From positions 25,254-89,253 of IMG/VR virus record IMGVR_UViG_3300036800_000031: DNA of 64,000 nt, one strand, 5' to 3'. The notes beneath the pieces are model-generated. The model saw nothing but the letters and a program-made list of their open reading frames with translations, did not search any database and was not told where the DNA came from. Numbering within the stretch: the stretch's first letter is position 1; every line of letters begins with the position of its first letter. Below, in pieces: positions 14,743-47,291 of this stretch. The translations under genes and the position numbers were made by a program. The DNA is from a virus.

Positions 14743-14806
14743 CCCCCGAACGCGAAACGACCGGAGCCTTTTGGACCCCGGCCGAATCGCCTTCACAGTA
14801 CCTACG

Positions 14807-14878
14807 TGGCGGAGGGGAGACTCGAACTCCCGACTTCCTGGTTATGAGCCAGACGGGCTGCCGCTGCCCTACTCCGCT
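14807..14878 (-). tRNA. tRNA-Met(CAT), A1:C72 mismatch (initiator-like end)
   Basis: Cloverleaf by eye; loop CT-CAT-AA; T-loop TTCGAGT. Confidence 0.85.
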
Positions 14879-15408
14879 GTGCTCATAGAAGCTACCAGGG
14901 TGGGCCTACCGATAGCAAGGTATGGCTCCCAAGCGGGGTCTGGCCGGATTTTCAGGAGGTGGGCAGCGACGCCCTTGGGCCGGAAAGGGGTGTTGTGAAG
15001 TTCCCATCCCAGCGAGTCCAGGGTCTGGTGGCCCTTCTTCTGATTGCATCTCCGGCAACAAGCGGTGACGTTCTCCCAGGTGTGCTTTCCACCGAGCGCC
15101 CTGGGGACGATGTGGTCGATGGTGCCGTCCTGGCGGACGTCCTTCTGGCAGTAGCCACACCGGTACCCATCTCGGGCACAGACGTTGGAAGTGATGAGCA
15201 TGATGCTCCGGTGCTTCTCGGGCATCACGACGTACTTCCGAAGGACGAGGACCGAGGGGACCATGACCTGAGTAGACGGAGAGCGGAAGACTTCACCGCT
15301 GTATTCGATGGGGTCGGCAAGCTCCTCCAGGTAAAGCTCGACAGCATCCCGGTCGCGAATGATCGCGAGGGGTTCTCTGCTGGCGTTCAGGAGGAGCGCC
15401 CTGTTCAT
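14869..15408 (-). CDS. HNH endonuclease (McrA-like)
   Basis: RALLLNAS.EPL, RDGYRCGYC, TIDHIVP...GG..TWEN..ACC..CN..K. Confidence 0.92.
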   Translation of the reverse strand: MNRALLLNASREPLAIIRDRDAVELYLEELADPIEYSGEVFRSPSTQVMVPSVLVLRKYVVMPEKHRSIMLITSNVCARDGYRCGYCQKDVRQDGTIDHIVPRALGGKHTWENVTACCRRCNQKKGHQTLDSLGWELHNTPFRPKGVAAHLLKIRPDPAWEPYLAIGRPTLVASMSTAE

Positions 15409-15454
15409 CTGATTCTCGGTCTCTTTGTCATCGTCACTGCTTTCTGGTTGATTC

Positions 15455-15541
15455 TGGTCTCAGCGGCGGGAGTCGAACCCGCATGGCCGTTCAGGCCAGC
15501 CCGTTTTGAGCGGGGTGCGTATTCCGTTCCGCCACGCTGAG
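15455..15541 (-). tRNA. tRNA-Leu(CAA)
   Basis: Loop CT-CAA-AA, long variable arm, encoded CCA. Confidence 0.88.
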
Positions 15542-15559
15542 GTGATCTGAATAGTCCAA

Positions 15560-15646
15560 TGGTGCGAACGGGGAGAGTCGAACTCCCACTGGGCCGAGCC
15601 CACCACAGTCTCAGTGTGGCCTGTCTACCGATTCCAGCACGCTCGC
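15560..15646 (-). tRNA. tRNA-Leu(GAG)
   Basis: Loop CT-GAG-AC, long variable arm, CCA. Confidence 0.88.
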
Positions 15647-15647
15647 A

Positions 15648-15719
15648 TGGTGCCCCCGCCCGGAATCGAACCGGGATCGGCCTGATTAGAAGTCAGAGGA
15701 CGGATTCCATCCCGAGGGC
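15648..15719 (-). tRNA. tRNA-Arg(TCT), reduced D arm
   Basis: Loop CT-TCT-AA, canonical T arm, CCA. Confidence 0.8.
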
Positions 15720-15720
15720 T

Positions 15721-15790
15721 TGGTACCGGAGCCGAGAATCGAACTCGGTCGCCACGATTATGAGCCGTGGGCCTGCCCAGCAAATCCGGC
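15721..15790 (-). tRNA. tRNA-Met or Ile2(CAT), reduced D arm
   Basis: Loop CT-CAT-AA, canonical T arm, CCA. Confidence 0.72.
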
Positions 15791-15946
15791 AAGATCAGAT
15801 CGAATCTCCCGTGTGGCCTCTCGCTTCTCCTGGGCACGGGTAATGCGCTCGGGGCGTAGCCAGGAGTTGACCTCGCACATCCGATGCCCGTGGACAGGGC
15901 AGTGTGCGTTGATACCGATGTGCCCACGCATTTTCGCCATGAGCAC
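15758..15946 (-). CDS. small hypothetical protein reading into the CAT tRNA
   Basis: Fills the gap between His and CAT tRNAs; CxxH motif; stop TAA lies in the anticodon loop. Confidence 0.4.
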   Translation of the reverse strand: MLMAKMRGHIGINAHCPVHGHRMCEVNSWLRPERITRAQEKREATREIRSDLAGFAGQAHGS

Positions 15947-15954
15947 ATCGTAGG

Positions 15955-16030
15955 TGGGGTGGATGAGGGGAATCGAACCCCCTAACAGACACGGTCACAG
16001 CGTGCTCCCTCGCCATTTGGGTTCATCCAC
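15955..16030 (-). tRNA. tRNA-His(GTG)
   Basis: Loop CT-GTG-AC, C73 discriminator, CCA. Confidence 0.85.
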
Positions 16031-16032
16031 AG

Positions 16033-16104
16033 TCCACCAGGTAGGGATCGAACCTACGACCTTCACTTTGTAAGAGTGCTGCGCTCCCGCTGCGCCACTG
16101 GTGG
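16033..16104 (-). tRNA. tRNA-Val(TAC)
   Basis: Loop CT-TAC-AA; perfect 7-bp acceptor stem. Confidence 0.88.
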
Positions 16105-16161
16105 TTGATGCTGGGGCCGGAGGATCGTAGGCAGGCCCTTACCTCCCCTCCGGCCTTAGCG

Positions 16162-16234
16162 TGCCCCCGGCAGGAATCGAACCCGCTCATCCTCCGATTA
16201 AAAGTCGGCTGACCTCCCACTGGCCTACAAGGGC
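16162..16234 (-). tRNA. tRNA-Lys(TTT)
   Basis: Loop CT-TTT-AA. Confidence 0.85.
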
Positions 16235-16235
16235 A

Positions 16236-16311
16236 TGGTCCCCACCCTGGGTGTCGAACCCAGTGTCTTCCGAGTATCAGTCGGACGCCTTCACCGTCTG
16301 GCCCGATGGGG
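16236..16311 (-). tRNA. tRNA-Ile(GAT)
   Basis: Loop CT-GAT-AC, CCA. Confidence 0.85.
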
Positions 16312-16355
16312 ATAAGTCAGGGCGGGATGGCAGCGAACCACCATCACCGCCCCGG

Positions 16356-16428
16356 TGCCCGCAGAGGGTCTCGATCCCCCGGCCTTCGGCGTGTCGTGCC
16401 GACGCTCTCCCAACTGAGCTATGCGAGC
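16356..16428 (-). tRNA. tRNA-Val(GAC), atypical (C33, A54)
   Basis: Loop AC-GAC-AC; T-loop ATCGAGA; canonical D arm. Confidence 0.75.
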
Positions 16429-16429
16429 T

Positions 16430-16577
16430 TGGTGGAAACTCTCTCCCGGTCACGTCTGGCGACCGAACGGCACCGAGAGGGATGAACTCCGATGCTTCAC
16501 GGTCGGCGGCTTCAGCCACGTTCATCAGCGCGTGACGCCACCCAGCGACGTTCCTGAGAAGGAGGAGACAGGCTCCC
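16430..16577 (-). ncRNA. unknown structured RNA with G3:U70 acceptor-like stem and ACCA end
   Basis: GGGAGC/GTTTCC-ACCA terminal stem; internal GATGAAC/GTTCATC helix. Confidence 0.5.
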
Positions 16578-16584
16578 CCTTCGG

Positions 16585-16657
16585 TGGTTCCCGCCGGGAT
16601 CGAACCGACGCCTTCCGGGCTTCAACCGGACGCTGCTGCCAACTAAGCTAGAGAACC
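16585..16657 (-). tRNA. tRNA-Phe(GAA)
   Basis: Loop TT-GAA-GC. Confidence 0.85.
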
Positions 16658-17115
16658 TTGTTTTTTCTCCCCCGCCAGGTCGGCGTAAGGGCATGGCAGT
16701 TGGGGCATAGGATCGCCAGGTTCTCGATCCGGTGATCGTCCTTCACCCCGTTCATATGGTCAACCTCCAGTGGTATTGGCTGACCCATCCACTGGACCCG
16801 CTTGCACTCTTTACATTGACGCTTCCGCCCCTGCGCCAAGAGAATGGGCAGGAGGTGATAGGTCGGGTAGGTCGAGTTCTCGCAAAAGATTTCCTCCAGC
16901 GTGCGCCGACGAAGGGGCGCTCCACGGGTACCAACCCAGGACTGCCCGGTGAAGTGGCTGACATCGGCCCCAAGCCGCTTTGCATGTCTCTGGACCGAGC
17001 CGTAGTTGCCTCCGGCGAGATTAAGGCCGACTCCCCTGACTACCTGCGCCCAACTGGTCGAGGCGACGATGGCCTCCAGTAGCTCGGAATCGGTCCATGA
17101 CCTCGGCTTGCCCAT
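16648..17115 (-). CDS. HNH endonuclease
   Basis: RSWTD.EL..GGNY N-terminus; CKEC...LEVDHMNG..DDHRIENL.ILCPNCH; start moved to the ATG after the TAGACT box. Confidence 0.92.
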   Translation of the reverse strand: MGKPRSWTDSELLEAIVASTSWAQVVRGVGLNLAGGNYGSVQRHAKRLGADVSHFTGQSWVGTRGAPLRRRTLEEIFCENSTYPTYHLLPILLAQGRKRQCKECKRVQWMGQPIPLEVDHMNGVKDDHRIENLAILCPNCHALTPTWRGRKNKVL

Positions 17116-17132
17116 GCCGTAGTCTACCGTTA

Positions 17133-17163
17133 CGGACGCTCTCCCTGACTGAGCTAGGGAACC
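17133..17163 (-). pseudogene. 5' half remnant of tRNA-Phe
   Basis: GGTTCCC-TA-GCTC-AGTCAGGGA-GAGC-G-TCCG truncated in the anticodon stem; pairs perfectly with the 3' acceptor strand of the downstream tRNA-Phe. Confidence 0.8.
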
Positions 17164-17164
17164 T

Positions 17165-17239
17165 TGGTGCGGCCCGGAGGAATCGAACCCCATCCGAGAG
17201 GGCATAAGCCTCTCTGCGGCCACCAGCCGCACGAGCCGC
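17165..17239 (-). tRNA. tRNA-Ile(TAT)
   Basis: Loop CT-TAT-GC, A73, CCA. Confidence 0.78.
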
Positions 17240-17240
17240 A

Positions 17241-17313
17241 TGGAGCCGTCGCTGGGGGTCAAACCCAGCCGGGCGTCGTTACAAAGGACACCTCCGCATC
17301 GGGCGGCGACGGC
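17241..17313 (-). tRNA. tRNA-Thr(TGT), atypical
   Basis: Loop TT-TGT-AA with C:C at the closing pair; T-loop TTTGACC; CCA. Confidence 0.65.
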
Positions 17314-17314
17314 A

Positions 17315-17393
17315 TGGCTGGGGAGGAGGGCCTCGAACCCCCAAGGAATCCTGTTTCAAAGACAGGCGACTTTGCCACTTTGTCTACTCCCCA
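17315..17393 (-). tRNA. tRNA-Gln(TTG)
   Basis: Loop CT-TTG-AA, U1-A72, G73, CCA. Confidence 0.85.
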
Positions 17394-17394
17394 A

Positions 17395-17468
17395 TGGAAC
17401 GGACGAAGGGAATCGAACCCTCATAGTCAGATTGGAAGTCTGACGTTCTACCGTTGAACTACGTCCGC
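17395..17468 (-). tRNA. tRNA-Gly(TCC)
   Basis: Loop CT-TCC-AA, U73, CCA. Confidence 0.9.
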
Positions 17469-17469
17469 A

Positions 17470-17571
17470 TGGTGGACAGAGAGAAGATGCTCTCGACGTA
17501 TTACCGCCGTAAGTGTGACCCTCCCCTTTCCCAAGACCGTGGCATTGCCAGCTTGGGTTAGGCGTCTGCCC
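17470..17571 (-). ncRNA. unknown structured RNA with 7-bp G3:U70 acceptor stem and ACCA end
   Basis: GGGCAGA/TCTGTCC-ACCA; arms CCCAAG/CTTGGG and GGGGAG/CTTCTC; no T-loop or anticodon loop. Confidence 0.6.
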
Positions 17572-17582
17572 AGCGCCATCGG

Positions 17583-17654
17583 AGCGAATGACGGGGGTCG
17601 AACCCGCGACCTTCTCGTTGGCAACGAGACGCTCTACCACTGAGCCACATTCGC
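17583..17654 (-). tRNA. tRNA-Gly(GCC)
   Basis: Loop TT-GCC-AA; canonical. Confidence 0.92.
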
Positions 17655-17656
17655 AT

Positions 17657-17730
17657 TGGAGGCTGGACCCGGAATCGAACCGGGCTGACGCGGGTTGCAA
17701 CCGCGCACCTCACCACTCGGCCATCCAGCC
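17657..17730 (-). tRNA. tRNA-Cys(GCA)
   Basis: Loop TT-GCA-AC, U73, CCA. Confidence 0.9.
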
Positions 17731-17734
17731 AAAG

Positions 17735-17805
17735 CCCCCTCGCTAGGTAACGATCCCAGTTCTTCCGATTAACAGTCGGACGTGTGGCCTTCACACCGCA
17801 AGGGG
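17735..17805 (-). tRNA. tRNA-Asn(GTT), A54 T-loop
   Basis: Loop CT-GTT-AA; T-loop ATCGTTA; G73. Confidence 0.78.
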
Positions 17806-17809
17806 AAAA

Positions 17810-18226
17810 TCAAGCCACCACCTGCCGGTTGGCGCACCCACCCATTCGGTAGATCCGTTTGGCCTCCCTGCATCGGGAACACCGGCAGCCGTTTGGCATG
17901 TTGTACCGAGCACCTGTTCCGTGAGGTGGTACCGGCAACTTGTTGTGTCCACCACCAGAAGCCATATCTCCGGCTTCTTTCCCTTTCTCTATGTGGAGGG
18001 CATGGCAAAGAAGTTGACATTTCTCCAACTCGACCAAGAGGTTCTCCATCGAGTGAGAGAGCATGTTCGCTATCCCCTCGACCTTTGTAGTCCGGTCGAT
18101 GTGGTCTATTTCTAGGCGGTCTGTCGTACCGCAACGGACGCATTCACCTCCGAGGAAGTCGATAACGAACTCTCGTCGCTTCTTCCGACGTTCGACCATG
18201 TAGGTGTTCATATCTGCCATCGGCAT
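17810..18226 (-). CDS. HNH endonuclease
   Basis: LGGECVRCG...LEIDHID...KCQLLC..H; C-terminal HGT...Y..GCRC..C zinc motif. Confidence 0.88.
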   Translation of the reverse strand: MPMADMNTYMVERRKKRREFVIDFLGGECVRCGTTDRLEIDHIDRTTKVEGIANMLSHSMENLLVELEKCQLLCHALHIEKGKEAGDMASGGGHNKLPVPPHGTGARYNMPNGCRCSRCREAKRIYRMGGCANRQVVA

Positions 18227-18286
18227 AGGGGTTAACCGTACTACCGACGCCGACTGAGCACCCCCGCCAAGAGGGTCCGGTCAGGA

Positions 18287-18337
18287 TGGTGCCAGGCTTT
18301 CCGCCCCACTCGATCCCCGAAGGGTTACGAACCTGGC
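18287..18337 (-). ncRNA. mini tRNA-like RNA (7-bp stem plus ACCA)
   Basis: GCCAGGT/GCCTGGC-ACCA enclosing a CCC-TTCG-GGG hairpin. Confidence 0.4.
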
Positions 18338-18349
18338 TGGTGGTCTTCG

Positions 18350-18421
18350 TAGCGCGTGCGGGTGTTGATCCCGCGGCCTCCTGACTGAGAATCAGGCGTT
18401 CTCCCGTTGAACTAACGCGCC
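18350..18421 (-). tRNA. tRNA-Glu(CTC), A54 T-loop
   Basis: Loop TT-CTC-AG; T-loop ATCAACA. Confidence 0.8.
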
Positions 18422-18422
18422 T

Positions 18423-18497
18423 TGGTACAGCGACGGAGAATCGAACTCCGATTACCAGGGTGAAAACCTGGCCTCTTCGCCGTTAGAGGATCGCTGC
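18423..18497 (-). tRNA. tRNA-Glu(TTC)
   Basis: Loop TT-TTC-AC, CCA. Confidence 0.85.
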
Positions 18498-18563
18498 ATG
18501 AAGCTGAGTAGCCGCCACCCCAGGTACCCAGGTGACCAGTGAAGCCCCGGCGGACTGCCCCGG

Positions 18564-18647
18564 CGGAGAGTACAGGTGTCGATCCCGCGGACTTTCATCC
18601 GTATCCCTGCTTTCAAGGCAGGTTCCCAGGCCGCTGGGATACTCTCC
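18564..18647 (-). tRNA. tRNA-Ser(TGA), A54 T-loop
   Basis: GGAGAGT acceptor, loop CT-TGA-AA, long variable arm, G73. Confidence 0.82.
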
Positions 18648-19048
18648 CTGCTCGGGCTCGAACGGTGTTCTTGCCCTTGTAGGTTTCCGTCTGAGCGTGA
18701 CAGTTCGCGCAGAGCAGACGGAGATTCTCGATGCGGTGGTCATCGTTGATCCATCTCCAACGGAGCTGGCTCGCCGTTCCATTCGGTCAGGCCACACCGA
18801 TCACACTTCGGCTGCTTGATCCCCTCTCGGAGAAGCCGCCGTTTCACGTTGCCGGTGCTGTAGGTGGAGTGCTCCACTAGCACCGACTCCAGGGACCTCT
18901 GGTTGCCCCGTGGGGTCGCCCACGGCCTCGTGTGGGAGGTCGAGCAACTGATGGAGCAGTAGGCCCGCTGGGTCTGAGACAGGAAGTTGTGACAGGAGCC
19001 ATTCCCGCAAACATGCTGGCTGCGACCAGCGATCGGGAGCCAACTCAT
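18613..19048 (-). pseudogene. frameshifted HNH endonuclease
   Basis: Frame 1 ends PLEMDQR*; another frame resumes DDHRIENLRLLCANCHAQTETYKGKN; the DHxNG segment seen in the 16648 paralog is missing. Confidence 0.82.
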
Positions 19049-19093
19049 GACGACAGCTTACTATCCTGTTCGGGCGACCGAATGGCCGTCCAG

Positions 19094-19176
19094 CGGAAGT
19101 GGTCGGGGTCGAACCGACAGGGGCTTTCACCCGTAGACGCTTAGCGGGCGTCCTGCTCACCATTCGCATCACTTCC
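19094..19176 (-). tRNA. tRNA-Ser(GCT), C33
   Basis: Loop CC-GCT-AA, long variable arm, G73. Confidence 0.82.
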
Positions 19177-19180
19177 AAAG

Positions 19181-19248
19181 AACCCCCGCTGGGAATCGAA
19201 CCCAGCCAGCCGGTTTAGGAAACCAGCGCCCCTTCCACGGGCGAGGGC
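19181..19248 (-). tRNA. tRNA-Arg(CCT), reduced D arm
   Basis: Loop TT-CCT-AA; canonical T arm. Confidence 0.75.
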
Positions 19249-19249
19249 A

Positions 19250-19325
19250 TGGAGCCGACAGCCGGGATCGAACCGGCCACCTACGCGTTACGAGTGCGTC
19301 GCTCTCCCTACTGAGCTATGTCGGC
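19250..19325 (-). tRNA. tRNA-Thr(CGT)
   Basis: Loop CT-CGT-AA, CCA. Confidence 0.9.
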
Positions 19326-19326
19326 A

Positions 19327-19403
19327 TGGAGCCACGACGGGGGATCGAACCCCGGACCTCCTACTTACCAAGCAGGCGCTCTCCCTGACTGAGCTATCGC
19401 GGC
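19327..19403 (-). tRNA. tRNA-Thr(GGT)
   Basis: Loop TT-GGT-AA, CCA. Confidence 0.9.
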
Positions 19404-19477
19404 CGGACCGGCTAGACCATCAGCGCCCTTCCGGGTTGATTACGTCAGGGACGTTGTACACCGTCCTTTTCGCCGAG

Positions 19478-19546
19478 TGGCCAAGGTGGGACTCGAACCC
19501 ACAGGGCGTTCCTTCGGAGGGATCGCTGCATTCCATCGCCTTGGCC
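19478..19546 (-). tRNA. tRNA-Arg(CCG), atypical extended anticodon stem
   Basis: Perfect acceptor and T arms; GCGATCC-[CT-CCG-AA]-GGAACGC; minimal D arm. Confidence 0.6.
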
Positions 19547-19547
19547 C

Positions 19548-19623
19548 TGGTACCCCCATCCAGGGTCGAACTGAAATCTTCGGTTCCGTAGACCGACGCT
19601 CTGATCCATTGAGCTATGAGGGC
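19548..19623 (-). tRNA. tRNA-Arg(ACG)
   Basis: Loop CT-ACG-GA, CCA. Confidence 0.88.
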
Positions 19624-19630
19624 AAGAAAA

Positions 19631-19739
19631 AAGCGGACCTCCCACTCGCAGGCCGGTATGCCTTCCGACCCCGTACACTCGGCTCGGGCACCACCCCTTC
19701 GCCACGTCGCAATCATGCTGGTGGTAAGACGGTCCGCTT
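19631..19739 (-). ncRNA. unknown structured RNA closed by a 9-bp stem
   Basis: AAGCGGACC/GGTCCGCTT followed by a T run; inner ACCACC/GGTGGT. Confidence 0.4.
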
Positions 19740-19795
19740 TCGGGACAGCCGCCCTGTGGCGGCTTTTCATCGCAGGATTGCCTGCGCATCCCGAG

Positions 19796-19868
19796 CGGTC
19801 GTGACCGGTTTTGATCCGGCTACCTCCACCTTGACAGGGTGGCGCTCTCCCGAGTGAGCTACACGACC
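19796..19868 (-). tRNA. tRNA-Asp(GTC), A54 T-loop
   Basis: Loop CT-GTC-AA; T-loop ATCAAAA; G73. Confidence 0.85.
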
Positions 19869-19869
19869 T

Positions 19870-19946
19870 TGGTCCGCTAGACAGGATTTGAACCTGCGAC
19901 CTCATCGTCCCGAACGATGCGCGCTCCCTAGCTGCGCTACTAGCGG
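19870..19946 (-). tRNA. tRNA-Pro(CGG)
   Basis: Loop TT-CGG-GA, CCA. Confidence 0.9.
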
Positions 19947-19947
19947 T

Positions 19948-20021
19948 TGGCTCCCCAGCCAAGGGTCGAACTTGGATACCGAGATTCAGAATCTCGTGTG
20001 CTGCCATTACACCACCGGGGA
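19948..20021 (-). tRNA. tRNA-Gln(CTG)
   Basis: Loop TT-CTG-AA, U1-A72, CCA. Confidence 0.9.
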
Positions 20022-20094
20022 AGGCTGCGGACTCTGCCGCGGGTCACGCCTAGTTAGGGTCGGCGTTCACCCATGCCCGGTGATCAGTCGGGAG

Positions 20095-20166
20095 TCGGAT
20101 ACCGGAGAGTCGAACTCCGCTGGGCCTGGCCCCAAACCAGGTGCCTAACCGATCGGCATGTATCCG
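20095..20166 (-). tRNA. tRNA-Pro(TGG)
   Basis: Loop TT-TGG-GG; CGG start. Confidence 0.82.
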
Positions 20167-20240
20167 GTGTCGCTGTCTCTCCAGCAGCAACGTCTGGTAT
20201 CCCCAGGTCTAAGTAGGGGTTCGGGACGACGTTCTCCCGG

Positions 20241-20312
20241 TCGGACTGGAGGGGATCGAACCCTCGACTTCTCGGCCCCCAGCCGAGCGCTCTACCTCTG
20301 AGCCACAGTCCG
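20241..20312 (-). tRNA. tRNA-Pro(GGG)
   Basis: Loop CT-GGG-GG. Confidence 0.88.
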
Positions 20313-20320
20313 GTGAAACC

Positions 20321-20413
20321 TGACCCGCTGCCAGTAGACAGTTGCCCCGGAGGGCTTCACATGCGTGTGCACCTCGCATGAACGACGGAATGGATTATCA
20401 CCGTCCCGAGTCA
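20321..20413 (-). ncRNA. tRNA-shaped five-helix RNA without tRNA consensus loops
   Basis: TGACTCG/CGGGTCA closing four hairpins. Confidence 0.4.
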
Positions 20414-20416
20414 TTG

Positions 20417-20489
20417 TGCGCCCGGTGGGGTTTGAACCCACGACCTTGGGATTAAGAATCCCCTGCTCTCCCGGCTGAGCTACAAGCGC
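20417..20489 (-). tRNA. tRNA-Lys(CTT)
   Basis: Loop TT-CTT-AA. Confidence 0.88.
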
Positions 20490-20490
20490 C

Positions 20491-20575
20491 TGGTGCGTGT
20501 GGAGGGAGTCGAACCCTCAGCCCCGAAGGGCACCGCTTCTGGGGCGGCTGCGTATACCAGTTCCGCCACGAACGC
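20491..20575 (-). tRNA. tRNA-Leu(CAG), C33
   Basis: Loop CC-CAG-AA, long variable arm, CCA. Confidence 0.82.
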
Positions 20576-20610
20576 AGGATGGGCAGTTTTCAGACTTGGC
20601 CCAGGTCGCG

Positions 20611-20683
20611 TGGAGCCTACGAGGATCGAACTCGTTACCTCCTGTTTGCAAAACAGGCGCTCTCCCGGATGAGCTAAGGCCCC
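20611..20683 (-). tRNA. tRNA-Ala(TGC)
   Basis: Loop TT-TGC-AA, G3:U70. Confidence 0.92.
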
Positions 20684-20689
20684 AAAGCT

Positions 20690-20791
20690 AGGATGCGGGC
20701 TGCCATTACACCACCGCAGCCCCCGAGGGGGTGAAAGTTCCCTTGCGGTTGCTCTCTTACGCGACGTGGAATCGAACCACGACCTCATCCT
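20690..20791 (-). ncRNA. circularly permuted tRNA-like RNA (YrlA/Y-RNA-like topology)
   Basis: 5'-AGGATG-AGGT-CGTGG-TTCGATT-CCACG-TCGCG...TGCGG-TG-GTGTAATGGCAGCCC-G-CATCCT-3': T arm precedes D arm and the ends pair as the anticodon stem. Confidence 0.65.
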
Positions 20792-20793
20792 CG

Positions 20794-20872
20794 TCCGCCG
20801 CCTCAGAATCGAACTGAGCGTGCTTGCGCGGCTGGTTTACAGCCAGCCTGGCCCCCTTGGCGCGTGCGACGG
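20794..20872 (-). tRNA. tRNA-Tyr(GTA), C1-G72
   Basis: Loop CT-GTA-AA, small variable hairpin, A73. Confidence 0.78.
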
Positions 20873-21012
20873 ATGCGGGACGGTCGGTACCCGGGCAACT
20901 GCCCGGCCCGTCCCATTTGGACTATTCAGCGTGACGGGTTTTGTTCGGTACCGTCACTATCGCCTGCTACCTCCCTCACTCGCCATGACGGACGAGGTAC
21001 TGAGGTTTGAAG

Positions 21013-21046
21013 CATGGGTGGAGGGAGTCGAACCCCCCTTCACCTC
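21013..21046 (-). pseudogene. 3' half remnant of resident tRNA-Trp
   Basis: GGGGG-TTCGACT-CCCTC-CACCCAT-G; acceptor strand complements ATGGGTG at 21503-21509. Confidence 0.82.
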
Positions 21047-21047
21047 G

Positions 21048-21118
21048 CATGGGCGTCAGGAATCGAACCTGATCGGCGAGAGTTTTGGAGACTCTCCGGC
21101 TACCTCAGCCTCGCCCAT
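21048..21118 (-). tRNA. tRNA-Trp(CCA), reduced D arm, lying mostly within the HNH ORF
   Basis: ATGGGCG/CGCCCAT-G, loop CT-CCA-AA, canonical T arm. Confidence 0.82.
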
Positions 21119-21454
21119 ATGCGCTCGGAAGTAGGTGCGATCCCCGTGGCACAGGGCACACACCACTTCACACTTGGCTATCTCGGCCAGCAGCCGGGCA
21201 ACCGAAGCCGGAGAATGAGCCATCCGGTTGATACATCGGTCTTTCTCCTCGTCCCCGAGGTGGTCGAAGTGCATGTTCCAGAACCCGTACTGGATTCCAC
21301 AATCTGCACAGGGCCGGTTTTTGTGCTCTCGGACTATCGACCGATTGCGCTCCCGGTACTCGACTACTCGCTGCCGATACTGAGCCTTGTTGTTTCGATA
21401 ATGCTTCCTCTTGCTCTCCTTCAGTCGTGGATCTTCTAGGTCGAGATAGGCCAT
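21056..21454 (-). CDS. HNH endonuclease
   Basis: PCADCG...MHFDHL...EIAKCEVVCALCH..RT. Confidence 0.9.
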   Translation of the reverse strand: MAYLDLEDPRLKESKRKHYRNNKAQYRQRVVEYRERNRSIVREHKNRPCADCGIQYGFWNMHFDHLGDEEKDRCINRMAHSPASVARLLAEIAKCEVVCALCHGDRTYFRAHMGEAEVAGESPKLSPIRFDS

Positions 21455-21473
21455 GCCCTCAGCGTAGGTCCAG

Positions 21474-21509
21474 TGGAAGCCGCTGCTCTGCCCACTGAGC
21501 TACACCCAT
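21474..21509 (-). pseudogene. 5' half remnant of resident tRNA-Trp
   Basis: ATGGGTG-TA-GCTC-AGTGGGCA-GAGC-A-GCGGC-TT-CCA, ending right after the anticodon. Confidence 0.85.
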
Positions 21510-21510
21510 A

Positions 21511-21541
21511 AGAAAAGGCCACCCCTATTGGGATGGCCTCT
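21511..21541 (-). terminator. intrinsic terminator (attenuator) ahead of the tRNA array
   Basis: GAGGCCATCCC-AATA-GGGGTGGCC followed by TTTTCTT. Confidence 0.8.
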
Positions 21542-21569
21542 GGATTCTCCGCTTCTACTTCAGATGCGG

Positions 21570-21695
21570 TTACGAGAGGCTCACCCCTGGCTTGGCTTCG
21601 GTGGATGTATTCCACTGATAGCCGGGCACGAGGATCGACAGGCACGGCAACGCCGTCCCTCGATCTTCATAGCTCGGAAACAGTTGGAACCTCAT
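21570..21695 (-). CDS. putative leader peptide (41 aa) of tRNA-array attenuator
   Basis: MRFQLFPSYEDRGTALPCLSILVPGYQWNTSTEAKPGVSLS*; ATG 7 nt after the -10; last codons form the antiterminator strand. Confidence 0.7.
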   Translation of the reverse strand: MRFQLFPSYEDRGTALPCLSILVPGYQWNTSTEAKPGVSLS

Positions 21696-21702
21696 GACGT
21701 TC

Positions 21703-21730
21703 ATAGTACCCCGATTTCGAGGGGGGTCAA
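21703..21730 (-). promoter_or_regulatory. sigma70/SigA-type promoter of the tRNA array
   Basis: TTGACC-N16-TACTAT. Confidence 0.75.
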
Positions 21731-22368
21731 GTACCCTGTGCTGCCCGGCGGCTTGGAAGGCCCATCGTGTTGCCGATCTGCCCGCCGTTCATCCAGTGGT
21801 GCCAGGTCCAGGTGCGCTCCGGAAGGTGAGCGATTTTGTACCCGGAGCGGGCGAGCTTGATGGCGAAGTGGAACTCCTCCCCAGCCCGATTTCCGTCCTC
21901 ATCCTGACCCGGATCGAGAGGGTCGGTCCCGTCTTCCCAAAGGAACCCGTTGACCGCCAATGCCGCTTCGGTACGCACGAGGACGGTCACGGTGGTCTGG
22001 TGGGGATCGGCCAGATCGAACTCCCGTCCGAAGTTGTCAGGGAAGGGGTCCGAGCCGCCCATGACGTAGAACCAAGGGAACACCATGTCCGCCCCGGTCT
22101 CAATCTGCTTCTCCATCAGCCGTTGGAGGTGGTGCTCCCCGAACTCGTCGTCGTCATCCAGAAAGGCAACCCACTCGGTGTCCACCATTTCCAAGCCACG
22201 GGTGCGGGTGATGGCCGCTCCTACTCCGAAAACGTCGCTGGCGACGATCAGCGTATGGGGGAGAACGGTGCCCTTCTGGACGGAAGTAACCGCCCGGCCT
22301 AGAAGCTGTGCCCGCTCGGGGATGGTGGTGACGACGACGGTGATCCCCGGCCTTAGCTGGCTCGACAC
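21727..22368 (-). CDS. glycosyltransferase family 2
   Basis: ITVVVTT..R...L.RAV.SV, G.A.TR.RGL, WVAFLDDDD. Confidence 0.9.
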   Translation of the reverse strand: MSSQLRPGITVVVTTIPERAQLLGRAVTSVQKGTVLPHTLIVASDVFGVGAAITRTRGLEMVDTEWVAFLDDDDEFGEHHLQRLMEKQIETGADMVFPWFYVMGGSDPFPDNFGREFDLADPHQTTVTVLVRTEAALAVNGFLWEDGTDPLDPGQDEDGNRAGEEFHFAIKLARSGYKIAHLPERTWTWHHWMNGGQIGNTMGLPSRRAAQGT

Positions 22369-22994
22369 AGTGATCCCTCCTTGGTCCGTTGGAAATGACG
22401 ACGGTGCCGCTCGTCAGTTGGGAAAGACCTTCCGCAGGCATCACAATAAAACTCCCCCCTGGCTCTATCAGAGCGTTTTCGGGCTGCGTACTTTCGGCTG
22501 CTGACATTCCTGCACGTTCTACATGTTCGGTTTCCGTTCGCCCGGATAATCGTGTTGCTAAGGGTGAACCTATGACCCCGATTACAACAATCGAGAGCCT
22601 TGCGCCTTACTGCTATAGGCGAATGGGGAGCAGGGATAGGGCCTAGCTCCATGTGTCCAGGGTTCACACAGTGACGCAACCCGCACAAGTGAAGGGGCAT
22701 TTGTTCGTCGGGTATTGGGCCAACTAAAAGTTGGTAGGCATACTTGTCAGCCCTGACTGTCTTTGTCGGCCTCCCCTGTCCGGCTCCGAAGATCCCATAT
22801 CCTGTCCCTGGGTGTACAGCTGCCATCCAGACCCAACAACCGCCTTCCAGCTGTATATCGACTTTCTCCCAAAACCGTTCCACCGCATCCCTTCGTCGGA
22901 TCAGATTCCAACACTGGGGGTTACAAAATCTTTGACCACGACGACCCTGGAACTCATCCCCGCACTGTTCACAGATCAGACTTCGGTCAGTCAT
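22353..22994 (-). CDS. HNH endonuclease
   Basis: RFWEKVD...CWVW...GYG.F, LHLC..RHCVNPGH, C..GH...CRTC. Confidence 0.85.
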   Translation of the reverse strand: MTDRSLICEQCGDEFQGRRGQRFCNPQCWNLIRRRDAVERFWEKVDIQLEGGCWVWMAAVHPGTGYGIFGAGQGRPTKTVRADKYAYQLLVGPIPDEQMPLHLCGLRHCVNPGHMELGPIPAPHSPIAVRRKALDCCNRGHRFTLSNTIIRANGNRTCRTCRNVSSRKYAARKRSDRARGEFYCDACGRSFPTDERHRRHFQRTKEGSLCRAS

Positions 22995-25033: not shown

Positions 25034-25263
25034 GGTCCTGCGATCAGATCGGCGGAGACCATGAGTTCGTTCCCGCTCATGGGGTCGATCCGGTACTTCC
25101 AGGTGCCGTTGTCGGCGACGATGGTAATGACCCCGTTGACGACGCTGACCCCGCTCAGGGCGTCGTGGCTCATCAGCCCGATCAACTCCCGGCTGAAAAG
25201 CTCCCGCGGCCCGGCGTCGTGGACGAGGGTGGCCCCGGTGGGGTCCCGCTCAATGGTGATCAC
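25030..25263 (-). CDS. hypothetical protein
   Basis: GTG start overlapping the upstream TGA; 3' part of the listed 207-aa ORF. Confidence 0.55.
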   Translation of the reverse strand: MITIERDPTGATLVHDAGPRELFSRELIGLMSHDALSGVSVVNGVITIVADNGTWKYRIDPMSGNELMVSADLIAGP

Positions 25264-26225: not shown

Positions 26226-26303
26226 TAGCGGGGGTGGGATTCGAACCCACGACCTCCGACCCGAAAGTGAGTCGGCGAGCTAACCGGGCTGCTCTACCCC
26301 GCG
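26226..26303 (-). tRNA. initiator-tRNA-like gene with aberrant anticodon arm
   Basis: CGCGGGG-TA-GAGC...GCTC fMet-type body, C1:U72 mismatch, canonical T arm; loop TCACTTTCGG (10 nt) lacks CAT. Confidence 0.65.
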
Positions 26304-27382
26304 CTGGAAGCCATTACGTGGAGCGAAGTTTGACGCCGGGTACCGGTCCACGCCTCCCACCATTCGTCGGCGTGGCGCTCGTAGGTCAACCCGGCCATGA
26401 CTTCTCGACCGCGCCCGGCCACGTCCGCCCGGAAGTCAGGATTCAGGGCCAGCGCCCGGAGCCACTTCTTCCACCGTTGAGGGTTGGACGCTTCCAGACC
26501 GACCCCGAGGGCATGGAGCCGGTGGTTGTCCCAAGTGGGCGAGGCAACGACCGGAACCCCGACAGCGGCCATCTCCCCCATTTTCAGGGCGCTCTTGGCA
26601 GCGTTGAAGGCGGTAGCCGCAAGGGGAACGACCCCGACTTCCATCTTCGCCAGTTCGGCCGGGTACTGGTCAAAAGGCACCCACCCCCGGCTCGTAGAAG
26701 GCTCCTCAGCCAGCCCCAGGGCCTCCCTAACGCCTTCGCCGGTCCCCACGGTATGGAAGCCCCACCCGGTAGCTCGCATGACGTCAGCGACCGTCCCGCC
26801 GGTTACTTGCAAATCGACCGGGTGGGTAGCGACGCTTCCAGCCCAACCGAATGTCTCCGGCCGGTCCCCGGTCACCTGGAGGTAGCTCTCGGGGACGTAG
26901 TTAGGCAGGAGTACCCCGTGACCGAACCCGTAGCGTTTGAGGAGGGCGGGGGTTGTGCAGGTCACAACGTCTGAAATCATGCAGGCTTCGTTGATCCAAT
27001 GGTGGCTACTGAGCGAGTCCCGGCCCGTGGCGTAGGCAGCTTTGGCGATGTTCCCGTCGTCAATCTGATCGAAGCGGTCATCCACGTCACAGACCACCTT
27101 GATCCCCCGTGCTTGGAGATGAGGGATCAAGTCACTCCACCACCGCCGACTCGGCCGTTGGACAACCACGACGTCGGCGTTCGGCCTCCGGGCCAACCCC
27201 ATCACGTTCACCCAGGGAGGAGGTTCTCCCCCGGACCACTTCTGGTCCCACTGAACGGTCGGGCCTATCCGGTCGATCACGACCTCAGCGCCTTGGGCGG
27301 CGAGGATGCGGGCCGGGAGTAGGAGTCGGTATTGGCTGGTGGCGTCGTTGTCGTCGCCAGCAGGCCAGACAAGAACCCTCAC
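26294..27382 (-). CDS. glycosyltransferase, GT-B (family 4-like)
   Basis: YRL..P, VVVQRP, DVDD, LPNYVP, GWAGS..H, GVVPL....FN.AKS.LK..E..A.GVP. Confidence 0.9.
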   Translation of the reverse strand: MRVLVWPAGDDNDATSQYRLLLPARILAAQGAEVVIDRIGPTVQWDQKWSGGEPPPWVNVMGLARRPNADVVVVQRPSRRWWSDLIPHLQARGIKVVCDVDDRFDQIDDGNIAKAAYATGRDSLSSHHWINEACMISDVVTCTTPALLKRYGFGHGVLLPNYVPESYLQVTGDRPETFGWAGSVATHPVDLQVTGGTVADVMRATGWGFHTVGTGEGVREALGLAEEPSTSRGWVPFDQYPAELAKMEVGVVPLAATAFNAAKSALKMGEMAAVGVPVVASPTWDNHRLHALGVGLEASNPQRWKKWLRALALNPDFRADVAGRGREVMAGLTYERHADEWWEAWTGTRRQTSLHVMASSAG

Positions 27383-46844: not shown

Positions 46845-46913
46845 GCCTCAGATGGGATTGACCAGGGCGTCTAAAGTCCACGGTCCACGGTTCGACTCCG
46901 TGCTGAGGCACCA
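46845..46913 (+). tRNA. amber suppressor tRNA(CTA), reduced D arm
   Basis: GCCTCAG/CTGAGGC-ACCA; GGGC-[GT-CTA-AA]-GTCC; canonical T arm. Confidence 0.68.
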
Positions 46914-46914
46914 A

Positions 46915-46987
46915 GCCTTCCTAGCTCAACTGGTAGAGCAGGGCCTTCTAACGGCTCACGATCCGGGTTCGATTCCTGGGGGAGGCG
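46915..46987 (+). tRNA. amber suppressor tRNA(CTA), canonical cloverleaf
   Basis: GCCTTCC-TA-GCTC-AACTGGTA-GAGC-A-GGGCC-[TT-CTA-AC]-GGCTC...TTCGATT...GGGAGGC-G. Confidence 0.88.
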
Positions 46988-47291
46988 CAACGGTGGTGAG
47001 GTGGACCAGGCCGAACGGGGACTGAACGCTCGGGAACGGCGGCTTGGCGCTGGTGGGTGAGTAAGGGCCGCGGTGGATCAACTCCCGGCTTCCGTCGTAC
47101 CGGGCTGGACCCCACCACCGGAAGCATCCTTCAGACGGGCAGGTCCAGATGGAGATGTCCAGGGGTGGGCGGCAGGTGTGCGCCGGGTTCGGAGGGGGCA
47201 TACCGCTCGGCCGGGCTGGAGGGAGCTTGATGACTTCCCCCTCTTTTCTCGGGATGCGTTTGGTGCTCCGGTCCCGGTGAATCTTCATCAT
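46956..47291 (-). CDS. hypothetical protein
   Basis: Coupled ORF; 3' end overlaps the suppressor tRNA antisense. Confidence 0.45.
   Translation of the reverse strand: MMKIHRDRSTKRIPRKEGEVIKLPPARPSGMPPPNPAHTCRPPLDISIWTCPSEGCFRWWGPARYDGSRELIHRGPYSPTSAKPPFPSVQSPFGLVHLTTVAPPPGIEPGS

Follow-up and report, generated by a model that had tools for sequence, protein, structure and literature searches.

The window analysed here is a 64,000-nt stretch (positions 25,254 to 89,253) of the IMG/VR virus record IMGVR_UViG_3300036800_000031, an 89,253-bp record with terminal repeats that was judged complete and has a G+C content of 62.4%. On the minus strand of the window ARAGORN finds an array of 34 tRNA genes (14806-21118). 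Our subject is an HNH endonuclease gene that lies, together with a complete tRNA-Trp gene, inside a second and interrupted tRNA-Trp gene at 21013-21509. We call the interrupted resident gene the outer tRNA-Trp, the complete one the inner tRNA-Trp and the inserted stretch the cassette. The parts of the locus are listed below in transcript order, each with its basis; X2, X4 and X5 are public DNA runs in which an uninterrupted allele was found.

21474-21509, minus strand: 5' piece of the outer tRNA-Trp, tRNA positions 1-36, ending at the anticodon CCA (read from the sequence; collinear with the uninterrupted allele up to 21474)
21038-21473, minus strand: inserted cassette, 436 nt, in place of 12 nt (tRNA positions 37-48) (skipped exactly by contigs of X2, X4 and X5)
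21455-21473, minus strand: cassette leader, 19 nt, with TACGCT at 21466-21461 (read from the sequence)
21056-21454, minus strand: HNH endonuclease open reading frame (ORF), 132 aa, with residues 113-132 and the stop inside the inner tRNA gene (ORF list, PHROG, tblastn)
21047-21118, minus strand: inner tRNA-Trp(CCA) with a reduced D arm (ARAGORN)
21038-21047, minus strand: cassette tail, 10 nt, from the inner tRNA to the outer T stem (inside the stretch skipped by the uninterrupted allele)
21013-21037, minus strand: 3' piece of the outer tRNA-Trp, tRNA positions 49-73, made of the T stem-loop, CACCCAT and the discriminator G (collinear with the uninterrupted allele from 21037 downwards)

The outer 5' piece consists, in order, of ATGGGTG, TA, a 4-bp D stem, A, GCGGC as the 5' strand of the anticodon stem, TT and CCA. 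Its ATGGGTG pairs 7/7 with the CACCCAT of the outer 3' piece. Nothing between the inner tRNA and the T stem pairs with GCGGC, and the outer tRNA of the cassette allele therefore lacks positions 37-48: its anticodon loop is cut short, the anticodon stem has no 3' strand, and there is no variable loop. An earlier reading of this DNA, made from its letters and ORFs (the sequence-only reading), had listed the parts of the HNH/tRNA-Trp locus, and all of them are present on the minus strand at the coordinates above. The 5' piece does end exactly at CCA (21509-21474), the orphan CACCCAT does match the orphan ATGGGTG, and the end of the ORF does hold a complete but divergent tRNA-Trp, which ARAGORN calls as tRNA-Trp(cca) with a reduced D arm; it has a new anticodon stem and the TGA stop of the ORF in its T stem. 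What had been described as the orphan 3' half has the T stem-loop and CACCCAT but is less than half a tRNA, as positions 37-48 are gone.

TACGCT in the leader is followed by six bases and then by the ATG of the HNH gene at 21454. As a match of letters only, it is possibly the -10 box of a leaderless transcript. The cassette has a G+C content of 57.3%, versus 62.4% for the genome. No intron family was matched by Rfam over 20500-22000 at an expect value (E) of 1 or less, and the HNH ORF has its own start and stop outside any Rfam-detectable intron. With the 12 target nucleotides (positions 37-48) missing, splicing could not restore the outer tRNA-Trp, and the proposal of an intronless element agrees with both results. 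In its intron mode ARAGORN returned only chimeric calls for the window, joining the outer 5' piece to the 3' part of the inner tRNA. We also enumerated junctions in the window; 539 of 756 combinations were called as tRNAs, and the approach was dropped as non-discriminating because ARAGORN accepts nearly every anticodon arm provided that the remaining arms fit.

The 132-aa protein matches PHROG 3106 (E 1.1e-19), 2255 (3.2e-17) and 4234 (5.5e-9), all named HNH endonuclease. Searches with tblastn found HNH endonucleases annotated in phages of Streptomyces, Mycobacterium and Gordonia (37-49% identity), and the best HNH relatives found are 46-56% identical. An alignment of the window HNH with six relatives (A1, 7 sequences) has C49, C52, H65, C99, C102 and H103 invariant in 7/7, giving two CxxC pairs, H65 and H103. 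As is usual in the family, the four cysteines would be zinc pairs, and H65 of the D-H motif and the last His would be catalytic. The conserved part of the protein ends about ten residues past CxxCH. A sequence search of the PDB gave only repeat-driven matches to protein A, which we took as spurious.

The inner tRNA is the sole tRNA-Trp of the 89-kb genome, in agreement with the proposal that the cassette carries a replacement, and it likely serves the phage as its only tRNA-Trp, as a predicted gene. Its minimum-energy fold is a cloverleaf (-29.1 kcal/mol, z -2.29). It differs from the resident gene in the anticodon stem, the D arm and the acceptor, and it is homologous, with compensated stem changes, to the tRNAs of HNH cassettes at two other loci (L008 and L017). 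Among seven HNH-linked tRNA-Trp genes, 19 of 22 pairs have compensated changes; as this alignment mixes distant tRNAs, it shows tRNA-likeness and not the function of the inner copy.

The uninterrupted tRNA-Trp allele

To recover an intact tRNA-Trp from relatives lacking the HNH gene was the check set in advance. We aligned contigs of four public DNA runs (X1, X2, X4 and X5) to window positions 20850-21700. Both flanks of the cassette are joined in one contig each of X2, X4 and X5, that is in three runs from three studies, two of soil and one of permafrost; in run X1, which may be the source sample, no contig spans the joined flanks. On the downstream side the joined contigs start at about 20904-20917 and run to 21037; on the upstream side they extend from 21474 to 21510, 21542 or 21661. 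The same 12 letters stand for 21038-21473 in all three. Compared with the window, the joined contigs have 3-14 differing letters per aligned piece. According to the summary tables the flanks differ at several places, and no difference is listed inside the two outer tRNA pieces, which would fit a fairly recent insertion of the cassette.

For ARAGORN the joined form was built by script, with the 12 letters set between the window's own flanks. It is called as a canonical 74-nt tRNA-Trp(cca), with 7 bp in the acceptor stem, 4 bp in the D stem, 5 bp in the T stem and a variable loop of 5 nt; four positions of the anticodon stem pair, and one is a C-C mismatch. The check thus yielded three contigs from three runs of three studies and an ARAGORN tRNA-Trp, and an uninterrupted tRNA-Trp allele exists at the same locus in relatives. 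Since the joined flanks and the 12 letters form a canonical tRNA-Trp, the cassette replaced positions 37-48 here, and because both alleles were caught in nature the borders of the insertion are known to the base. Among close relatives the HNH gene is present or absent at one and the same locus, with empty-site contigs in 3/4 runs.

Two observations touch on the cassette's own parts. The GTG core of the 10-nt tail resembles the variable loop of the uninterrupted allele, and the tail might be the remnant of an earlier target. In two longer contigs of X2 (7.5 and 11 kb) the match is confined to the inner tRNA region 21059-21113, at roughly 85-90% identity; they could come from other genomes that hold a relative of this odd tRNA-Trp.

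HNH genes and tRNA scars at other loci

We scanned 166 loci with 192 matches to the protein, drawn from phage records, IMG/VR contigs, metagenome contigs and the window. Four matches were cut by a contig end, leaving 188 evaluable. In 53 of the 188, a tRNA starts before, or at most 20 nt after, the HNH stop. The stop lies inside the next tRNA gene in 24 of these, and the tRNA starts up to 20 nt past the stop in the other 29. Nine of the 53 adjoining tRNAs are tRNA-Trp. Further matches in bacterial genomes and metagenome-assembled genomes (MAGs) have a tRNA at or near the HNH stop in 23 of 105 evaluable cases.

An HNH gene 38-48% identical to that of the window stands directly before a tRNA-Trp at L008, L017, L090, L088 and L105. 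In the first three (40-43% identity) the tRNA-Trp has the odd D arm of the inner tRNA together with fully compensated changes in the acceptor and T stems. No orphan tRNA pieces were found at these five loci, and the cassette tRNA is there simply the array's own tRNA-Trp. HNH plus tRNA-Trp recurs as a unit at these loci and at L027.

We also searched the 192 matches for the split layout, defined by an orphan 5' acceptor and D arm upstream of the HNH gene and, on its other side, an orphan T arm whose acceptor strand pairs 7/7 with the upstream piece. It was found five times, in the window, L027, L148, L010 and L083; L148 carries the same letters as L027. Controls with mismatched loci gave 4 hits in 20 replicates, or about 0.2 expected per 192 loci. 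The split layout around HNH genes is more frequent than chance.

L027 is an AT-rich 149-kb contig unrelated to the window, with an HNH 32% identical. In order, it has a tRNA-Trp 5' piece through the anticodon loop, a promoter-like TGTTATAAT, a ribosome-binding site, the HNH gene and an inner tRNA-Trp; last comes an orphan T arm with an acceptor strand that pairs 7/7 with the 5' piece. Like the outer tRNA of the window, it is without the 3' strand of the anticodon stem. A pattern made from its outer piece matches its own contig only. At L010 the HNH gene splits a tRNA-Thr(UGU) and there is no inner tRNA. L083 is more complex, with several tRNA-Leu genes and orphan pieces flanking the HNH gene. 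In an Acidobacteria MAG (L210, 108-595) a tRNA(CAU) is interrupted within its variable loop by an HNH gene that has a TATAAT and a ribosome-binding site of its own, again with no replacement tRNA, and both outer tRNA pieces look nearly complete. The intron mode of ARAGORN did not rebuild the outer tRNAs of L083, L010 or L027.

A second type of scar is commoner. Here a complete tRNA is followed by the HNH gene and then, within a few bases of the HNH stop, by an orphan T arm and acceptor. It is found with tRNA-Gly(CCC) at L089, L098 and L167, with tRNA-Gln at L117/L121, and also at L236. L089 and L098 hold the nearest relatives of the window HNH in our tree, and L167 was added after the tree was built. 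The complete chromosome of Rubrivirga sp. IMCC45206 (L197, 1201-1870) encodes a tRNA-Lys(CUU) with a terminator, an HNH relative, and an orphan T arm and acceptor directly past the HNH stop. The orphan is 21/23 like the complete tRNA, with a compensated T-stem difference, and has its own terminator. In this type the T stems of the complete tRNA and the orphan differ by compensated pairs. The right border of the scars lies at the start of the T stem in nearly all cases, as in the window. Upstream of the HNH genes, no copy of the downstream tRNA's 5' end reached 20/30, except at one truncated locus, where the match was to the locus's own tRNA; the strongest of the others, at 19/30, lay inside other tRNAs.

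The window contains a second cassette, at a tRNA-Phe, with an HNH gene of a different family from the first:

17163 to about 17133, minus strand: orphan tRNA-Phe 5' piece, GGTTCCC...
17115-16648, minus strand: second HNH gene, PHROG 10822 (PHROG match)
16657-16583, minus strand: complete tRNA-Phe after the second HNH gene

TAGACT stands five bases before the ATG of this gene at 17115 and is similar to the TACGCT of the first HNH. The 3' acceptor strand of the complete tRNA-Phe pairs perfectly with the orphan piece, and has a G-U wobble with its own 5' strand.

Probable entry of the cassette and other explanations

A stretch with exact borders was inserted into this tRNA gene, its empty site is present in relatives, and the cassette recurs at other loci. 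We consider it likely that the insert is a 436-bp mobile cassette, made of an HNH gene and its own tRNA-Trp, that entered the resident tRNA-Trp and left it as two dead pieces. In this process the HNH enzyme would cut uninterrupted tRNA-Trp genes in or next to positions 37-48, close to where the variable loop meets the T arm, so that its predicted recognition site lies in or beside these positions, next to the T arm. Repair of the break would copy the cassette in, with conserved tRNA sequence on both sides serving as homology. The carried tRNA would compensate for the one destroyed, and a nuclease gene could in this way occupy an essential, conserved RNA gene without a self-splicing intron. The cassette allele should be immune because the site is gone, and the carried tRNA gene, which differs throughout the replaced stretch, is predicted to be immune too.

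Taken together, the loci raise a wider reading, which we hold with even confidence for and against. The HNH family (AEIAKCEV...CxxCH) could be one of widespread intron-free homing elements specialised on tRNA genes, with the junction between variable loop and T arm, or its vicinity, as their point of entry. The invaded function would be kept alive by a 'patch' that each element carries, which may be as small as a new T arm and acceptor or as large as a complete tRNA gene. Such elements would be a principal driver of tRNA turnover and exchange in phage arrays, and a possible route for these arrays to gain, lose and swap tRNAs. They would also invade chromosomal tRNA genes of bacteria, for example the Rubrivirga tRNA-Lys and the tRNA-Gly(CCC) of Gemmatales MAGs.

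A number of results weigh against a mobile cassette driven by its HNH enzyme. The empty-site contigs are short (293-629 nt) and known from summary tables alone. We infer the cutting, the cut site and the specificity of the HNH protein from architecture alone, and a left border after position 36 with a loss of 12 nt would fit an imprecise, possibly one-off, joining equally well. Pfam HNH models gave no match to the protein even at E<=10; given the PHROG matches, the protein therefore falls in an HNH branch outside Pfam coverage. Its AlphaFold 2 (AF2) model has a mean predicted local distance difference test (pLDDT) score of 80.6, and a Foldseek search with it, as a check on the beta-beta-alpha-metal fold of HNH (His-Me finger) endonucleases, gave no hits at E<=0.001, the weak top rows being mostly HNH domains. 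The best VIA-align match is a weak one, to the Gme HNH nicking endonuclease (4h9d_A), with Z 4.4 and a root-mean-square deviation of 4.0 over 73 residues; rows 2-5 are also HNH proteins, and Z values of this size often arise by chance. At the leader (21455-21473) no promoter was called by the consensus scan; of the -10 box proposed before the HNH gene only the TACGCT itself stands. At the inner tRNA, Rfam returned no RF00005 row and scored tRNA-Sec at 32.6 bits versus a cut-off of 47, a miss that the reduced D arm probably explains. Within the family, 111 of the 192 matches have no downstream tRNA in their locus. The HNH genes adjoining a tRNA-Trp do not form one clade in a tree of 142 distinct HNHs, from which we left out matches with a query start above 45 or an end below 103, those with an internal stop and identical duplicates. 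Their seven rows need 4 changes; the tree is poorly resolved, with 74 of 139 forks open, and decides neither for nor against a single enzyme lineage tied to tRNA-Trp.

In another explanation, a fragment with an HNH gene and a tRNA-Trp was joined here once by non-homologous repair, the HNH enzyme taking no part and having a different role or none at all. The deletion of 12 nt speaks for such illegitimate recombination, as do the lack of clear microhomology at the borders on reading, the failure to find close cassette-bearing phage relatives that would show spread, and the fact that most HNH family members are not beside a tRNA. We nevertheless think a one-off event unlikely, as the same layout exists in the unrelated contig L027, and HNH relatives adjoin a tRNA in 53/188 and 23/105 evaluable matches. 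Scars beside them affect five or more other tRNA types, against the roughly 0.2 expected per 192 loci.

The sequence-only reading had gone further and proposed one sequence that is both protein and tRNA. Physically this is true. The overlap is 63 nt long, position 1 of the tRNA being the first base of codon 113, and consists of 20 sense codons (residues 113-132) and the stop TGA (21058-21056), which falls in the 3' strand of the inner T stem. In a functional form of the idea, the tRNA-encoded 20-residue tail would be needed by the enzyme, for example to recognise tRNA genes. The real overlap, and tblastn alignments of relatives that extend in the same frame into their tRNAs, are in its favour. 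Yet residues 113-132 have no counterpart in any of the six aligned relatives, the AF2 model has pLDDT <50 at residues 120-124 and 126-130, and the in-frame similarity is explained by similarity of the tRNAs as DNA. In the homologous cassettes of L008 and L017, whose frame relative to the tRNA is that of the window, the ORF stops on T7-A8-G9 of the tRNA; in the window base 7 of the inner tRNA is G, and for this reason the frame stays open until the T stem. The 20-codon run of the ORF into the tRNA looks incidental, a by-product and accident of one base pair, and the overlap probably has no meaning for the protein; functional dual coding is very improbable. Of the proposed homing element with a substitute tRNA, the split target, the empty allele, the freedom from introns and the recurrence hold, and the dual-coding meaning for the protein probably falls away.

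Overlaps of ORFs with tRNA genes are found elsewhere in the window. Three ORFs on the minus strand, 14869-15408, 16648-17262 and 26294-27382, end on the TAG of positions 8-10 of the next tRNA, which is a tRNA-Met, tRNA-Phe and tRNA-Val, respectively. The same stop position, a 10-nt overlap, recurs in many HNH-tRNA pairs at other loci.

Presence and absence alone give no direction, and the cassette might be ancestral and lost from the relatives by deletion, leaving the uninterrupted allele secondary. Insertion is the parsimonious direction because a deletion could not create the 12 letters, which are absent from the cassette allele and complete a canonical cloverleaf in the empty one. The G+C content of the cassette is also below that of its genome, and we regard an ancestral cassette as extremely improbable. 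That the 436 nt are removed by splicing, as an intron, or by some other processing, with the outer tRNA-Trp still made, is close to excluded. In its favour, the cited part of PMC3984707 describes group I introns, in some cases with an endonuclease ORF, from genes of bacteria and phages, tRNA genes among them, and the outer pieces of L083 and L210 look nearly complete. But the joined pieces of the window would give no anticodon arm without positions 37-48, Rfam matches no intron family at E<=1 over 20500-22000, and little of the insert lies outside the ORF and the inner tRNA.

Known systems and the genome setting

The full-text literature searched yielded no description of a split tRNA gene that houses both an HNH gene and a replacement tRNA. 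To our knowledge, homing endonuclease genes persist in conserved genes only by way of self-splicing introns or inteins, or else lie between genes. A likely mobile cassette of this kind would be a third solution for an RNA gene, which is to break the target and bring a spare.

Intronless homing is known from SegB and SegF of phage T4 (as described in PMC2330249). SegB of T4/T6 is a free-standing GIY-YIG homing endonuclease of a phage tRNA gene cluster that cuts inside tRNA genes and recognises a conserved T-arm motif (PMC2330249, PMC13096335, in the passages cited). Like SegB, the cassette has its endonuclease gene outside introns among phage tRNA genes, and its right border is also at a T stem. 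It differs in that its enzyme is of the HNH type and SegB is a GIY-YIG enzyme encoded between tRNA genes, which those passages do not describe as splitting one or as carrying a replacement tRNA of the same type in a compact insert. The activity and homing of SegB were shown by experiment in these accounts, whereas the cassette is known as sequence.

A closer parallel in logic than SegB and SegF is, by analogy, given by the mobile endonuclease ORFs (mORFs) of fungal mitochondria, which make gene hybrids in atp6 of Allomyces macrogynus and in atp6, atp9, cox2 and nad3 of Glomus (PMC3630166, in the portion cited here and below). There too an intron-free endonuclease ORF enters a conserved gene and brings a foreign copy of the part it displaces, with the native remnant left downstream. 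This logic matches the window and the loci where a complete tRNA and an HNH gene precede an orphan T arm (L089, L167 and L197). The hallmarks of the mORF type are all present in the window, namely an endonuclease ORF, a divergent replacement and native remnants identified via the empty-site allele. The mORFs have mitochondrial protein-coding targets and LAGLIDADG or GIY-YIG enzymes, whereas the cassette has a phage tRNA as target, an HNH enzyme and a whole replacement gene placed after the ORF. As far as that portion describes it, the principle was thus already known from mitochondrial protein-coding genes, and what appears new here is a tRNA target with an HNH gene and a replacement tRNA.

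HNH genes are linked to L-arrays of bacterial tRNAs and were proposed to help these arrays spread (PMC8421152), and F-TflI/II/IV of phage T5 are HNH genes beside tRNA arrays as named in PMC2330249. The likeness is the repeated linkage of HNH-type nuclease genes to tRNA arrays of bacteria and phages. It goes no further than linkage in the sections cited from both papers, which do not mention a split target, an empty-site allele or a carried replacement. Group I introns with homing endonucleases, as treated in the cited part of PMC3984707, are alike in being mobile elements of conserved RNA genes that neutralise their own damage. They undo it by RNA self-splicing with both exons complete; in the cassette no ribozyme was found, 12 target nucleotides are gone and the damage would be offset by a second gene. 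For annotation, the locus is a warning that among the genes of phage tRNA arrays there are pieces of dead tRNAs, as well as ORFs that extend into a tRNA gene.

The whole stretch was found in one sequencing run, a soil metagenome, and no run recorded as RNA contained it. A blastn search with 20780-21720 matched no phage record, exact patterns from the outer tRNA-Trp pieces matched no viral contig, and the glycosyltransferase neighbouring the cassette had no relatives in viral contigs. Just upstream of the tRNA array, the start of this glycosyltransferase gene is overlapped by a further HNH endonuclease gene (22353-22994, minus strand; PHROG 826, E 2e-32), whose G+C content at third codon positions is low, 0.53 versus about 0.78 in neighbouring genes.

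Immediately 5' of the outer tRNA-Trp, at about 21540-21513 on the minus strand, is a 9-bp hairpin with a T run. Upstream of the tRNA-Trp, the consensus promoter scan found a promoter-like TTGACC-16-TACTAT at 21730-21703. In run X4 the empty-site relative retains the stretch with the hairpin and the promoter-like sequence (21510-21730) in a somewhat altered form. Elsewhere in the window, two adjacent tRNA genes with a CTA anticodon lie at 46845-46988 on the plus strand. They are labelled tRNA-Pyl by ARAGORN and are amber-suppressor-like, and TAG may perhaps be read as sense at some stage.

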